This document shows positions 9,001 to 15,000 of a stretch of 64,000 bases of DNA, one piece after another. The stretch is from the NCBI GenBank assembly GCA_963705505.1, contig CAVPJU010000010.1, positions 768,001 to 832,000 on the forward strand, in the 5' to 3' direction. A program made the position numbers. Origin of the DNA: an uncultured bacterium (GTDB lineage Bacteria; Desulfobacterota_D; UBA1144; Nemesobacterales; UBA2774). The first letter of the stretch is position 1. Each line of letters starts with the position of its first letter.

Positions 9001-12000
9001 CAGGCCCGAGCCTATAAAGCTCGACATCAAAGTGATTGTCGCGGGCAACTCGTATCTCTATCAAATGCTTTACGCGTATGACGAGGATTTCAGGAAGCTC
9101 TTCAAGGTGAAAGCGGATTTCGACTCGGTAGTGGACAGAAACGACGGAACGTTATCCCAGTACTCGTGTTTTATAAAATCTATATGCGACAGGGACGGTC
9201 TTAACCCGTTTGACAGAAGCGGGCTTGAAACAGTGCTCGAGTATTCTTCGAGACTTGCGGGGGATCAGACCAAACTGTCTGTCCAGCTGGGGTCCATAAC
9301 CAAAATACTGAAAGAAGCCGATTACTGGGCCAAGCTCGACAACGGGGAAGGACTCACGAAACGCGTGCACGTCGAGAAGGCGATAGAGGAAAAGATATAC
9401 AGATCGAATTTGGTCGAAGAGAAGATTCAGGAGCTGATTGCAAAAGGGGTTTTGCTCGTGGACACGGAAGGGATGGTCACGGGGCAGATAAACGGCCTTG
9501 CCGTCTATAACATGGGGGACTATGCGTTCGGCAAACCGTCGCGAATAACGTGCGAAACGTTCATGGGGACCGAAGGGGTCGTAAACATCGAGAGGAAATC
9601 GAGAATGAGCGGGAACATACACGATAAGGGCGTACTTATACTGAGCGGCTACATCGGCGCAAAATACGCTCAGAATAAGCCGCTCAGCCTCTCGGCGAGC
9701 ATCGGGTTCGAGCAGAGCTACGAAACGATAGACGGGGACAGCGCATCGGCAGCGGAGCTGATAGTGCTCCTCTCGAGTCTCTCCGGAATACCCGTAAAAC
9801 AGAGCCTCGCAATTACGGGCTCCGTGAACCAGAAGGGCCAGATACAGCCTATCGGCGGCGCAAACGAAAAGATCGAGGGGTTCTATGACGTATGCAAGGC
9901 CAAGGGCATGACGGGCGAGCAGGGAGTCGTTATACCGTACCAGAACGTGAAAAACCTCATGCTCAAGAAGGAGGTCGTGGAAGCGGTCAAAGCGGGGAGA
10001 TTCCATATTTACCCGGTCGAAACTATTGACCAGGCCATAGAGACAATCACGGGCAAAGAGGCCGGGCAAAGGGGGGCCAGCGGAAAGTTCAAGCGTGGGA
10101 CCATCAACTACCTGGTCGACAAGAGGCTCAGGGAATTCGCCGAGGACTACAGGAAGTTCGGAAAACAGCAGGCTTCCAAAAAGACGGACAACTCGAACGA
10201 AAAGTAATCCGCTATTTTATCTCGAAGGAAGGGTCTGCCTCTTTTTGCTGAAACCGAAAAGCTTAATGAATTCCGCAAACGCCTTATCGCTTAACTCCTT
10301 AAGACGGGAAATGTAAGCGTGGGTTTCCTCCCTGATCCTGTCGGGGATTATTTTCCCGTTTAGTTCGTCAATCTCTTTTTTATTCACGGGGATGCGGAGC
10401 CACCGCTCGACCATGGGCTCATCGACCTCAAGGTGAAACTGGAGCCCGTAGACATTGTCTCCGTAACGGAATGCCTGGTTTTTACAGAGAGGAGAAGACG
10501 CGAGAAGGAGCGCCCCTTCCGGAATATCGAAAGTGTCCCCATGCCACTGGAAAATCTTCTCCATCCCCGAGAAATGGGAGATGAGTGGGTCTTTTTTGCC
10601 GGTTGGGGTGGGAGAAAGATCGTACCACCCTATTTCCTTTTCACGATTTTTGTATACCTTCGCGCCGAGCGCTTTTGCGATTAATTGTGATCCCAGACAA
10701 ATGCCCAGGACCGGCATTCCCCTCTCCATAGCCTTGCGGATCGAATACACCTCTCTTTCCAGATAAGGGTATTTGTCGACTTCATCCACGTTCATCGGCC
10801 CGCCCAGCACGATCAATCCGTCATACCCTTCGAGATTCGGCTCGAAGTCCGGATGACGCTCGAAATTAACGTATTTTATCCTGAACCCGGAACCTCTTAA
10901 AACGGGATCGAGGGTCCCGAGAATCTCGTGCGCGACATGTTGAAAAACAAGAAGTCTGGGCATTTGGGAAATACCGTTATCGAATTACATGATCAGCAAC
11001 GGACACGAATGATTTTACCCATTAATTACATCTTAAGGAAATATCCGACGTGGAAAAAATCTTAGAGTAAATATCCGGAAGGGCCATGCAAATGACGGGC
11101 GTGCTTTAGAGCTTCATCTTCCCCGTCATAATGTCTTTAAACATTACCCATTCGCCCATAAGGCTCCAAAGCGGATGCCTGAAAGTCGCAGGTTTATTTT
11201 TCTCGACGAAGAAGTGTCCCGACCATGCGAGCCCGTATCCGAACACAGGAGCGAGGACGAGCAATGTCAAATTGCCGGAAAGGAAGGTGGAGAGGACTAA
11301 TATAAGTACGATAATACACCCCGCGAAATGGAGGCGCCTGTTCAGCGGGTCGCTGTGCTCGGAAAGATAATATTCGTAAAATTGACGAAAGTTGCTGAAT
11401 TCCTTTTCCTGATTATTAACCTTTACCATTTCACCCGCTCTCAATCAATTAACTTCCAGCAATATTATAATCACAATTTGAAAAACGAGTTCATAGTTTA
11501 TTGAGCTCACCTCTCAAGTCCTGTTAATAAATAATTATTTTGCGGTTTGGCTAAACAAGGAGGAGACGGCTTCAAGGCCGCCTCCCCGTACTCGATTTCA
11601 ATACTTGGGAAAAGGATGAAGGGGGATTACAACCGTAAGCTACTCTCCTTTGAGATACCTGACGACGTCCTCCTGTATTGATCCATCGACCAGACTCCGC
11701 CAATCGTTATTGCCTTCGGAAATGGCGGTCCTGATCTTCGTCGCGGAAATAAACCCGATGTTCTCGGGCGGGAAAAATTCGTTCATTTCATAACCCACTC
11801 CCCTGCCCCAGTTCACGGACTCTATATCCGGTATGACCATCACTACGACGTCGTCGCCCTTGCTCTCGTGATACTTTCTAATCATGTCGACGGTCTGCTC
11901 GGTCGTAAACGGGTTCTGCGGGTCGGGCGGTATGTCCCTCACCATAATGAGGCACGGAATCCCCTTATCGAGCTTCTGTCTAACCAGGCTCACATGGCCC

Positions 12001-15000
12001 ATGTGATAGGGCTGGTACCTGCCTATGAAAATAGCCCTTCTGTTCTTCGAGGGTTTGATATCCGCATTTCCGTGATTTATGACCTTCCATTCGCTCATTA
12101 AAAGCCTCCTTGTGCATATCAATCGTTTATTGATAAACGGGTTTTATTCCACGGTCAGATTAAGAACTATAAAACGGACTTCATTATACATGCCGTAAGG
12201 CTTTTTTCAATTATTCAGCCGGGATTAGAGCCGCTTACCGCCCAGGATAGATAAAACGGACTTTTTCACTCCTGAAGCGAGCTTTTTCTGCTCGGCGGCA
12301 TCGAGGTGAACCCCGTCGACCCTGCTGGATTTTACATATTTCGAAGCGTCGAGAAAATGGCAGCCTGTCATGTGAGCAATCTTCTCATACTCACGGGCCA
12401 GCTGCCGCGAAACGGCGGCCCGCCCTTCAAAAAATGTCTTCATGAACGGAGAGAGCGGACCCAGGGGCTGGGGGGCGACGAGCAGTATTTCGGGTACTCC
12501 GAAACCGGGGCCCGCCATGGCCTTCTGCACGGTCCAAATGAGAAACGCGCAGGACCCGGCTATTTCCGATGCGCTGAAATTAAACGTTTTCCAGAGGTCG
12601 TTCGTGCCGAGCATCAGTATAAAGAGATCGATCGGCAAGTTAGTCTCAAGTACGAGGGGAAGAGATTTGCGTCCGTTCCTCTCGGGAAGAAAGGGGCTGT
12701 CCCAGTTGGTCGTCCTTCCCGGCACGGATTCCTCTATTACCCTGTATGAGTCCCCGAGCTCCAGCTGCAAAATACCGGGCCAGCGGTCCTCAAAAGAGAA
12801 CCTCGTACCGTCTTTAGGGCTATAGCCCCACGTGATAGAATCTCCGTAACATAAAATCGACTTCATCCGAATCCTCCTTTAAGCATTTTTTCCTATTTTC
12901 GCATTCAGAAAGAGGCAGACAAGTGAATTCTCAAAGCCGCACGTATTTGCGATTCGCGCTATCGCTCCAGCTGCCGCGGAGCGTCTCCTTATTAAGGGCC
13001 TCCGCGAGCATAACGAGGAAGCGCTCTCTGCTTACCTCTCTCCCGCCCATCCGCTTCATATGGCTGTTGGGCACCTGAGAATCGATGAAATCGAAGCCCC
13101 ATTCTTTGAGCCTCTCGACCAGGTAATAGAGGGCTACTTTTGACGCGTCGCTCCTGATATGAAACATGGATTCGCCGAAGAACGCCCCTCCGAGCGCAAT
13201 ACCGTAGAGCCCTCCGACGAGCTTACCCTCCTCGTATGTTTCGACAGAATGCGCGTATCCTTCCCTGTGGAGCGTCGTGTATGCGCCGATCATCTCTTCG
13301 GTTATCCACGTCCCCGATTGCCCTCTCCTGCTTATCGCCGAACAACCCCTTATAACCTCTTCGAAAGACGTATCGAACGTGATTTCAAAAAGACCCGATC
13401 TTATGATTTTCCCTAATCTCCTCGAGACATGAAGGTCGGAAAGAGACAGCACGAGGCGAGGGTCGGGGGAGAACCAGAGGATCGGATTGCCCTCGGAATA
13501 CCAGGGGAAGATGCCGCTTCTGTAGGCGAGGAGAAGCCTGGGGACGCTGAGGTCGCCTCCTATTGCCAGAAGTCCGTTCGATTCCGCGTGCATGGGATGC
13601 GGGAAAACGAGGGACTCGTTTAATAGATATACAGGCATAACGAGTTAATATACATCATTCCGGTTTTCCCGGGTCCGCCCGCACGGGGAATCCCGTAAGA
13701 GCTTTATACAGGCGGATTCCCCTAGAATACCGACATTCTCATTCCGGACAATAATCAAAATCATACATCCGTATGTCCGAGGTCTCTCCCGGGAGCTATC
13801 CGGTCCCTCACTAATTGTTTAAGCTCCTTTATGTCTGGGAACCTGCCTTTTTCCTTCCTCGACCATATGAGCTCGTCCCCGACCCGCACCTCGAATATAC
13901 CGCCTGTGCCGGGCACGAGCGCCACTTCACCGATCTCAACGTCGAATGTCGTCAAAAGCTCCTGCGCCATCCAGGACGACCTCAATAACCAGCGGCACTG
14001 TCTGCAGTATATTATTTCAACTCTCTTTTTGTCTTCCATGATAGACGCCGATGCCTCAACAACGGTATTTTATCAGCCCGCAAATACCGAGTCTAATATC
14101 AAGTAGTTTAATACGAATAAATTATTGATATTAAAAATAGTATGTGAGATAATAAAATCAAGTTCCGCACAACGGAGATCAATGATGCTTAAAGAATTCA
14201 GAGAATTCGCAATGCGGGGAAATGTCGTCGATATGGCCGTGGGCATTATTATCGGCGCCGCTTTCGGAACGATCGTTCAATCGCTCGTTAACGACGTCAT
14301 AATGCCGCCCATAGGTCTTGTTCTCGGCAACGTCGACTTTTCGAACCTGTTCTTTGTGCTCAAGGAAGGTACCCCCGCCGGACCCTATGCCGCATTGACG
14401 GATGCGATGAAATCAGGCGCCGTAACGATTAATTACGGAAGGTTTATAAATACGATCATCAGCTTCCTGATAGTCTCATTCGCGGTTTTTATTCTCGTGC
14501 GGAACATCAACCGGTTGAGAATGCAGAAGGAGGCAGCGCCTCCTCCGCCCCCCGGGCCGTCAAACGAAGAGAAGCTCCTTACGGAGATAAGGGACATCCT
14601 TAAAAATAAGTAAGGCAGACGGCAACAGCGAAGAAAGAATTTTATCGATTACAATAAAAATACGCACTCCCGCAGAGCCGGGAAAGGGGTTATTCGGTAT
14701 TATTTCCCACATCCCCTTCATTTGTTTCCTTTTTGACCTCTTCCTTCTTTTCCTCTTTCTTCTCTTTCTTGCTAATGGGCTTGAAGATCGTCACGGGTAT
14801 ATTGAGAGTCTGTTTGATAAGTCCGAACAGACCGAAGCTAATCGCGGAGGGAGATAATTTTTCCACATCGGGATTGGACAAGTCCCCCGTGACCCTTATC
14901 GGGATCGAAACGAAGTTCTTTCCAAGGACAAAATTCACAAGGGGAATCTTTTCGATCACGGAATCCACGGCCATAACCGGAATCACGAGAAGCTGGAGAT

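Follow-up and report, generated by a model that had tools for sequence, protein, structure and literature searches.

The missing step in sulfate activation

To our knowledge, the activation of sulfate is attributed to Sat or to CysDN, the two recognised enzyme types, and a genome with neither is scored as incapable of using sulfate. The genome of the uncultured bacterium studied here (assembly GCA_963705505.1, 93.6% complete) raises the question of how APS is made in such a case. Profile searches agree with the first-pass annotation that it keeps an APS reductase, an APS kinase and a sulfite reductase without either sulfurylase: Sat (PF01747) and CysD are absent from this genome, as is a full-length CysN, the best matches to which are weak, partial GTPase matches. 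Its single real PF01507 match is an APS reductase (TIGR02055, 261.7 bits against a cut-off of 235.3), and it encodes a homologue of the sulfite/nitrite reductase Sir of Nitrospirales (E 2e-156). Motifs that we take to mark pyrophosphatase and cysteine synthase are also found. Searches of the genome for a sulfate importer returned neither a SulP nor a PiT-type sulfate permease, nor was an AprAB-type source of APS apparent, AprB matching at best with E 6e-5 over 56 aa.

The window, a stretch of 64,000 nucleotides beginning at contig position 768001, holds a candidate for the missing step. This gene, g02675, is about 720 kb from cysC and is not fused to it. It had been proposed to make APS, and the proposal is supported by exclusion in three phyla, by replacement at the same locus and by kinase fusions, from which we infer the activity. 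We conclude that g02675 encodes a stand-alone ATP sulfurylase of a third, undescribed type, with a probability of about 0.88. No description of the family was found in open-access papers. The gene itself is real, being an open reading frame with an HxGH loop (GRYQPYHMGH) and a Shine-Dalgarno site, with its ATG at 12098 and its TAG at 11640. Its features, in window coordinates, are:

11640..12098, minus strand: g02675, HxGH nucleotidyltransferase of 152 aa, probable minimal ATP sulfurylase
11994..12023, minus strand: G26-R27-x-Q29-P30-x-H32-x-G34-H35, NadM-type ATP-binding HxGH loop, matching NMNAT
11934..11939, minus strand: R54-D55 after strand 2, where NadM alignments place Gly-Ser
11790..11819, minus strand: S94-V-N-W-G98-R99-G-V101-G102-Y103, family signature, from conservation and the dimer model
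11730..11747, minus strand: S118-A-T120-x-I-R123, putative phosphate/pyrophosphate-binding helix start, common to NMNAT and Sat (SGTxVR)
12105..12111, minus strand: Shine-Dalgarno sequence AAGGAGG, 6 nt 5' of the ATG
12183..12210, minus strand: sigma-70 promoter-like TTGAAA-16-TATAAT, a consensus match only (11/12)
11560..11587, minus strand: intrinsic-terminator-like hairpin just 3' of g02675, 11 pairs, 8 of them G-C

The promoter-like site is the best of 10 in positions 10000-14200 (shuffle mean 4.6). Shuffled sequence averages 5.4 terminator-like sites where seven occur here, a count that by itself does not exceed chance; the placement of the hairpin suggests, at the sequence level, a one-gene transcript.

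Relationship to NadM and Sat

Among curated families g02675 passes only PF01467 (26.4 bits, cut-off 21) and TIGR00125 (31.9, cut-off 27.7), which with its Rossmann-like fold makes it a member of the HIGH/HxGH nucleotidyltransferase superfamily. A fold common to NMNAT and the Sat catalytic domain had been reported, and our monomer model (pLDDT 94.8, pTM 0.88) has it. The model matches 1f9a with Z 13.7 (rmsd 2.8, 130 aligned) and Thermus Sat 1v47 with Z 10.2 (rmsd 3.4, 128 aligned, 20% identity), covering only residues 153-347 of the latter. Fold matches to PPAT and NMNAT reach Z 13-14; Foldseek, and VIA on the Foldseek top 1000, gave solely PPAT and NMNAT among the matches listed, and Sat appeared only in a wide search. 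The closest sequence match is again 1f9a (E 4.6e-17), Sat being missing among the best 60 matches listed. This nearness to NMNAT and PPAT weighs against a sulfurylase.

The nearest relatives in sequence and fold are thus NadM and the archaeal NMN adenylyltransferases (TIGR01527, NF002243; 1f9a, 1ej2, 2qjo), with which g02675 has the GRxQPxHxGH, NP(F/Y)T and SxTxxR motifs in common. It nevertheless falls well below their cut-offs (NF002243, 48.2 against 127; TIGR01527, 44.2 against 181.2), and comparison with two NadM-Nudix proteins, 1f9a and 1ej2 reveals loss of the NMN site. The Gly-Ser loop, the serine loop of that site, is replaced by R54-D55, and the tryptophan helix and following segment, some 25-38 residues, are deleted. 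We take the Gly-Ser loop after strand 2 and the tryptophan helix after strand 3 of NadM to have NMN-site roles. For eukaryotic NMNATs, tryptophan roles are documented in PMC12470169.

Conservation within the family is high at R27, H32 and H35 (98-99% of 125-126 representatives), at R54 (95% of 136), in the signature (G98 96%, R99 97%, G102 99%) and at S118 and R123 (98% each), which align with SGTKVR of Sat and SGTEVR of NMNAT. Two of these, R54 and R99, are near-invariant arginines additional to those of NadM, and R54 is a candidate for binding sulfate. The GRxxG of the signature resembles the GRDHA loop of Sat.

Modelling supports a strand-swapped homodimer, which scored 0.93 against 0.00 for the best of three controls, by a mark that 20 of 30 solved homodimers and one of 23 monomers attained. 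Contact agreement among runs was at least 97% and pLDDT at least 90. In the model, strand 94-97 pairs with residues 22-25 and 103-108 of the partner.

Sat (PF01747; Thermus 1v47, Aquifex 2gks, human PAPSS1 1x6v) would share with g02675 the proposed reaction, and does share the HxxH nucleotidyltransferase fold, an SxTxxR helix, independence of a GTPase, and a place beside cysH or fused to CysC; a GR loop after strand 4 is a likeness by eye. It differs in length (about 385 aa against 152), in having a PUA-like N-domain and insertions that g02675 is missing, and in its motifs, QxRNPxHxxH against GRxQPxHxGH and GRDHAG against GRxVG; the strand-swapped dimer is modelled for g02675. In Sat-type enzymes QxRN precedes HxxH, according to PMC6607087 and PMC3779200. 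A histidine-anchored register set by hand reads G26-R27-Y28-Q29 in g02675, where QxRN is absent and its Gln and Arg, the sulfate ligands of Sat, have no counterpart in register, a further point against the sulfurylase reading.

It is unlikely, in our estimation, that g02675 is a Sat variant descended from a truncated catalytic domain, a reading that concerns origin only, keeps APS as the product and so overlaps with our own. It would account for the shared superfamily fold, for a colinear HxxH...GVG...SxTxxR alignment over 117 columns, for weak PF01747 matches in 15 of 61 members (E<=0.05, best E 6.4e-6), and for the loop resemblance, in which the G-R of VGRDHAG and GRxVG(Y) and a small residue three positions on agree by eye. 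The Asp and His of that loop differ. Comparison of the family with a seven-row Sat alignment by hhalign gave a probability of only 26.8%, with GVG paired and the GR dipeptides unpaired, which counts against the sulfurylase reading itself. PF01747 has zero match to the g02675 protein, and one homologue (P0261, 26 against 24.3 bits) marginally exceeds its cut-off. HxxH and SxTxxR (H32, H35, S118 and R123, 98-99%) are Sat features that occur superfamily-wide. Against descent from Sat, g02675 stands much nearer to NadM in sequence and fold while missing QxRN, the N-domain and the insertions.

Proposed mechanism

As a third-type sulfurylase, g02675 would catalyse ATP + sulfate -> APS + PPi on a NadM/NMNAT-like core stripped of its nicotinamide-binding part. 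ATP would be held by the HxGH loop (R27, H32, H35) and the S118-T120-R123 helix start, and sulfate, held by the family-specific R54 and the GRxVG loop, would attack the alpha-phosphate directly. The modelled GRxVG loop comes directly after a strand given by the second subunit; with strand 4 swapped between subunits, each active site would therefore be composite. One 152-aa gene stands in place of cysD and cysN, implying that there is no GTP coupling, and without a GTPase partner the enzyme, like Sat, would rely on pyrophosphatase, and on enzymes that consume APS, to draw the reaction forward. In the source genome one branch from APS would run through APS reductase, sulfite reductase and cysteine synthase and another through CysC to PAPS, while in Flavobacteriales, haloarchaeal plasmids and phages the family would supply CysC and sulfotransferases.

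We hold it somewhat more probable than even that a fuller account is correct in all its parts: that this is an independently evolved third class, NadM-derived and by far the smallest (about 115-155 aa), with its nicotinamide helix deleted, strand 4 swapped and its sites composite; that it is the sole entry to sulfate assimilation in most Dadabacteria; that in marine Nitrospiraceae and Flavobacteriales it took over the very loci of cysDN; and that in many aquatic phages it turns an "orphan" cysC into a full PAPS supply.

Distribution and replacement of known sulfurylases

The earlier counts for Dadabacteria were reproduced exactly: g02675 occurs in 78 of 120 genomes, Sat in 18 and CysD in 15, with no two together and nine genomes having none. 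The 78 carriers include 75 with cysH and 74 with cysC, and the reported identity of 75-93% within the order was found over 53 Dadabacteria-type loci. One Sat genome (G005) has the order pyrE-sigma54 regulator-PiT-sat-cysH, and the source genome a shortened pyrE-regulator-cysH. A different genome (G023), the strongest seeming exception within the phylum, has cysH and cysC and no sulfurylase of any type; it also lacks both genes that flank g02675, a glutamine amidotransferase (GATase) gene and aat, so an assembly gap is possible, though not demonstrated.

An objection raised earlier was that in Dadabacteria g02675 lies beside the GATase gene and not cysC. This is weakened by the promoter-like and terminator-like sites of g02675 itself. 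We rejected a functional tie to the GATase because the GATase gene lies anywhere between 5.6 kb upstream and 0.7 kb downstream, because it is retained without g02675 in three of four Sat-bearing genomes examined, and because g02675 is apparently monocistronic.

Among 121 Nitrospirales genomes a homologue is found in exactly five, all CysD-negative; CysD is found in 114. In all five it follows cysH in the order Rrf2-sir-cysH-[homologue]-ybiB, and in all eight sampled relatives cysD-cysN lies inside that operon, immediately after cysH in two. In a marine Flavobacteriales family (68 genomes) the homologue is present in 16, CysD in 41 and both in none. The order cysC then homologue, without CysD, had been noted in two Flavobacteriales genomes and recurs in 10/10 sampled carriers, as cysC-cysD does in 10/10 sampled cysD genomes; the slot lies between tonB and deoC-cysQ in six of ten of each, so that cysC and the homologue fill the place of cysC-cysD-cysN. 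The family thus occupies the slot of CysDN (TIGR02039, NF003587) in both sir-cysH and cysC-cysQ-sulfotransferase clusters, yet no CysD family match to the g02675 protein was found. Since g02675 is found where relatives carry Sat or CysDN, it is probably a third kind of ATP sulfurylase. The concern that kin genomes are not independent is eased by these two further phyla and the same-locus replacement, although dependence within lineages stays. Nitrospiraceae copies group with Flavobacteriales copies (98/94), and testing did not reject a single origin for the copies of Dadabacteria and Nitrospiraceae (p-AU 0.119).

Exclusion is not universal. Six of 23 outside carriers also hold a known sulfurylase, an intact-motif Sat in three and cysH with cysDN in three, and all five Nitrospirales carriers have Sat as a Sat-CysC fusion. 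The objection that g02675 and Sat can share a genome is weakened, in that QxRN or GRDHA is altered in four of these five fusions with the kinase motifs intact, so that the decayed fusions are predicted to act as kinases alone, and like decay occurs in 2/2 such fusions from cysDN genomes; it stands for G131, where QTRNP and GRDHA are both intact beside the homologue. Such coexistence would suit an enzyme that either adenylylates some other small anion or takes part later in the pathway, for instance in APS/PAPS turnover or in activating thiosulfate, selenate or a sulfonate, with APS coming from elsewhere. So would the failure to find a sulfate importer in the source genome and the missing QxRN ligands. 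We regard this reading as quite improbable: an accessory enzyme would be expected beside CysDN, but the overlap is 0/16 and 0/5 at cysDN loci; APS is required by APS reductase as well as by CysC, and the AprAB-type route to it was not seen; and separate sulfurylases for assimilation and sulfation exist, for example rhizobial nodPQ.

Fusions, gene neighbours and phages

The APS kinase domain (PF01583) reported in 61 of 62 longer homologues was recovered in the same number, the 62nd having a sulfotransferase domain (PF03567). Kinase fusions make up 43 of 63 long representatives, with the g02675-type domain first in 11 and the kinase first in 32, and both fused kinases examined pass TIGR00455. 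These fusions follow the two-step logic, in both orders, of bifunctional PAPS synthases (PAPSS, Sat-CysC, NodQ/CysNC), but are only 250-370 aa and use the g02675-type domain. A natural example is WP_049954638.1, encoded on a plasmid of Halostagnicola larsenii. The commonest neighbours of the family are cysC, sulfotransferases and sugar enzymes, in contrast to the NAD context of NadM. In the source genome, as had been stated, NadD-, CoaD- and RibF-like proteins each have a gene of their own (labels read from sequences).

That g02675 is instead a small NadM-type NMN adenylyltransferase of NAD salvage, its P-loop kinase fusion paralleling NadR, would fit its best matches (archaeal NMNAT and NadM-Nudix) and its NadM form of GRxQPxHxGH, but we rejected this identity as very improbable, given scores of 44-48 bits against cut-offs of 127-181, the lost Gly-Ser loop and tryptophan helix, fused kinases that in the two examined are true APS kinases, the presence of a NadD-like gene and the neighbours just named; it also leaves the exclusion of CysD and Sat unexplained.

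Among 80 metagenome loci the neighbour is cysC in 53, GATase in seven and cysH in one; of the 19 with none, 12 have less than 500 bp upstream. The earlier figure, cysC at 37 of 39 more distant loci, differs from this recount. In viral loci, cysC had been placed near 77 of 80, with exceptions near contig ends; we count 68 of 80 within 1.5 kb, or 74 of 86 after pooling a second set (one contig counted twice). Only two of the 12 exceptions are near a contig end, and 10 of the 86 loci lack a nearby cysC despite ample flanks. Four of five such records examined have no cysC at all, in records 14-54% complete.

If g02675 is a sulfurylase, phage cysC would be half of a complete PAPS pathway instead of an isolated auxiliary gene, and the sulfur reconstructions of Dadabacteria, some marine Bacteroidota, Marinimicrobia, Nitrospiraceae and haloarchaea would be corrected. 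The family would also exemplify an NMNAT-like scaffold switching to an inorganic substrate, and a PAPS synthase of about 300 aa could serve enzymatic sulfation. The third type would then be hidden under "cytidyltransferase-like" or "cysC" labels; a search of the ESM Atlas gave only unnamed "cytidyltransferase-like" viral clusters, and one of PHROGs gave "cytidyltransferase" and "kinase".

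The gene, its surroundings and the host pathway

We consider it nearly nine in ten probable that the putative sulfurylase represents a hitherto undescribed enzyme family that catalyses a known reaction. No description of the family was found in the open-access literature searched; an earlier mention elsewhere is possible. None of the tests applied placed the 152-aa protein in Sat, CysDN or NadM, and the only family models that it passes are the generic PF01467 and TIGR00125. The window starts at contig position 768001, not at 736001 as in the first-pass annotation, and holds the following features:

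12098-11640, minus strand: 152-aa ORF from ATG to TAG, containing GRYQPYHMGH and preceded by a Shine-Dalgarno site
12210-12183, minus strand: promoter-like site of the gene, consensus match only
11587-11560, minus strand: terminator-like hairpin of the gene, consensus match only
10217-14039, minus strand: neighbours, namely an Rdx-family protein, Leu/Phe-tRNA protein transferase, GDSL hydrolase, Mpo1-like protein and class-I glutamine amidotransferase (GATase)

The neighbours appear to be a positional association only. By its named homologues the host belongs to the Dadabacteria. No Sat, CysD or CysN was found in the host genome, G000, which is 93.6% complete and contains an APS reductase (TIGR02055, above cut-off), an APS kinase and a Sir homologue, as well as cysteine-synthase and pyrophosphatase motifs. 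Its NadD-, CoaD- and RibF-like proteins are encoded by genes distinct from the 152-aa gene. Neither of the sulfate importers SulP and PiT-type permease was found in the whole genome; in Sat-bearing Dadabacteria the PiT-type permease, missing from G000, precedes sat (locus L346:4304-5320).

Predicted structure and proposed mechanism

The predicted model of the protein (pLDDT 94.8) has the nucleotidyltransferase fold and resembles the archaeal NMNAT 1f9a (Z 13.7), the PPAT 4nah (Z 12.9) and Thermus Sat 1v47 (Z 10.2), fold likeness by itself showing no function. That NMNAT and PPAT are closest in both sequence and fold speaks against a sulfurylase. NadM has a Gly-Ser after strand 2 where the 152-aa protein has R54-D55, and a tryptophan helix after strand 3 that is deleted here; this loop and helix are the NMN-binding elements of NadM. 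Residues R27, H32, H35, R54, G98, R99, G102, S118 and R123 are 95-99% conserved among about 130 representatives. In Sat, according to PMC3779200, the QxRN residues Gln and Arg bind sulfate together with the Ala NH of GRDHA, and the backbone of GR binds ribose; in Sat models described in PMC6607087, Arg290 contacts PPi. Unlike Sat, the family is without QxRN, and it has GRxVG at the place corresponding to GRDHA in a register set by eye; hhalign of the family against Sat (probability 26.8%) paired GVG and did not pair GR.

Without the tryptophan helix, strand 3 runs nearly straight into strand 4, unpaired in the monomer model. When two copies were predicted together, residues 94-97 of each chain paired with its partner's strands 22-25 and 103-108, with a score of 0.93 (best of three controls 0.00), contacts agreeing by at least 97% between runs and pLDDT of at least 90. 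Of 30 solved homodimers, 20 reached the mark for this score, as did 1 of 23 monomers; these rates are only approximate here. The prediction favours a strand-swapped dimer whose site is composite, without establishing it.

The 152-aa protein most likely works like Sat. Sulfate would directly attack the alpha-phosphate of ATP, the route that PMC6607087 proposes for Sat. The anion site would consist of R54 and the GRxVG loop of the partner subunit. The equilibrium of ATP sulfurylase is unfavourable and, CysN being absent, pyrophosphatase, APS reductase and CysC would pull the reaction.

Distribution and proposed replacement of known sulfurylases

Among 120 Dadabacteria genomes the 152-aa gene occurs in 78, Sat in 18 and CysD in 15, with no overlap; the division follows families and therefore points to few underlying events. 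Carriers keep cysH in 75/78 cases and cysC in 74/78. Nine of the 120 genomes have none of the three genes: four also lack cysH and cysC, four others are 74-83% complete, and the last, G023 (90% complete), has cysH and cysC and is also without both genes that flank the 152-aa gene in other genomes. The gene order in genome G005 is pyrE, sigma-54 regulator, PiT permease, sat, cysH, whereas sat is missing from this locus in G023, and PiT permease and sat in G000; Sat has therefore been lost from a conserved locus. Dadabacteria-type loci also occur in records titled Spirochaetia or Deltaproteobacteria (L049, L068, L026, L055, L057, L089), probably loose record titles; the four in the tree (L026, L055, L068, L089) all cluster with Dadabacteria.

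A species-genome scan found 207 relatives, 80 of which were kept: 53 Dadabacteria-type loci (50 adjoining GATase), 21 adjoining or fused with cysC, 4 immediately after cysH, and 2 on short contigs without GATase, cysC or cysH context. Across 121 Nitrospirales genomes, five have the 152-aa gene and 114 a CysD-like gene, with no overlap; G134 has Sat instead and G179 none, and the one short CysD protein tested passed NF003587. All five carriers show the order Rrf2-sir-cysH-[152-aa gene]-ybiB as far as the contig extends, and in 8/8 hand-picked loci, out of the 114 cysD genomes, cysD-cysN lies within the same operon, twice right after cysH and six times after ybiB. The YbiB-like (anthranilate phosphoribosyltransferase-like) gene belongs to the sir-cysH operon in all 13 Nitrospirales loci compared (L027:6435-7490, L232-L239).

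A Sat-CysC fusion is located elsewhere in all five carriers. Its kinase motifs are intact, and its sulfurylase motifs are changed in four (QTRSP; QTRHP and GWDYA; QTQSL and EPNYA; QTRHPLYRVH and GQDYA) and both kept in G131. Judging by the mutagenesis summarised in PMC6607087, these changes are likely inactivating. Automatic annotation would score the decayed fusions as Sat. They resemble the Thiobacillus APS kinase 3cr8, whose sulfurylase activity is low. The fusions in both cysDN genomes inspected, G207 and G217, are likewise decayed. Fusions with decayed sulfurylase and intact kinase motifs are found at Nitrospirales loci L185, L186 and L191-L194. CysH of the five carriers (L027:5048-5848) is 60% identical to Dadabacteria CysH and distant from other Nitrospirales CysH (E about 1e-50), so cysH may have been replaced along with cysDN.

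In a marine Flavobacteriales family of 68 genomes, whose completeness is not given, the gene is found in 16, CysD in 41, both in none and neither in 11. In 10/10 carriers sampled of the 16, cysC precedes the gene, six times between tonB and deoC-cysQ-flippase-sulfotransferases; in 10/10 sampled of the 41 cysD genomes the order is cysC-cysD(-cysN), six times inverted between the same tonB and deoC-cysQ flanks. Here the product would serve sulfation. Nitrospiraceae copies group with those of Flavobacteriales (98/94) and not with Dadabacteria, and a single clade of Dadabacteria and Nitrospiraceae copies was not rejected (p-AU 0.119).

Fusions and viral relatives

An APS-kinase domain is present in 61/62 longer close homologues, the 62nd having a sulfotransferase domain. 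Among 63 long representatives scanned (out of 67 of at least 170 aa among 150 listed), 43 have APS kinase, the nucleotidyltransferase domain coming first in 11 and second in 32. A NadR-type kinase as partner is ruled out by the two fusions tested, both of which pass the APS kinase model TIGR00455. On haloarchaeal plasmids the fusion is labelled only cysC, and it follows a sulfotransferase in both records opened. Within 1.5 kb, cysC is found at 74/86 viral and 53/80 metagenome loci, and the commonest neighbours include sulfotransferases, CysQ-like and sugar-nucleotide enzymes. Against the sulfurylase reading, 10 viral loci with ample flanks have no nearby cysC; when five of these records were searched whole, cysC turned up in the one complete genome, at a distance of about 94 kb, and in none of the four partial ones. 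Also against it, among 23 carriers outside Dadabacteria and Nitrospirales three have Sat with intact motifs and three have cysH and cysDN, while 17 have neither Sat nor cysDN.

In the cultured phages Salvo (Xylella; L245:5590-6336) and DLP6 (Stenotrophomonas; L246:4590-5321), a trimmed kinase is fused to the nucleotidyltransferase domain in a protein of about 245 aa that is labelled 'kinase' or 'hypothetical' and would be an accessible test case for a minimal PAPS synthase. Homologues P0191, P0217, P0228, P0233, P0261, P0215 and P0226 carry an in-frame N-terminal cysteine-rich domain, presumably HNH/AP2 homing-endonuclease-like, for which Pfam gave no match at 1e-5. A DUF2061 membrane domain, possibly a further component of the sulfation module, is fused to or downstream of the gene in P0223, P0328, L273, L290 and L301.
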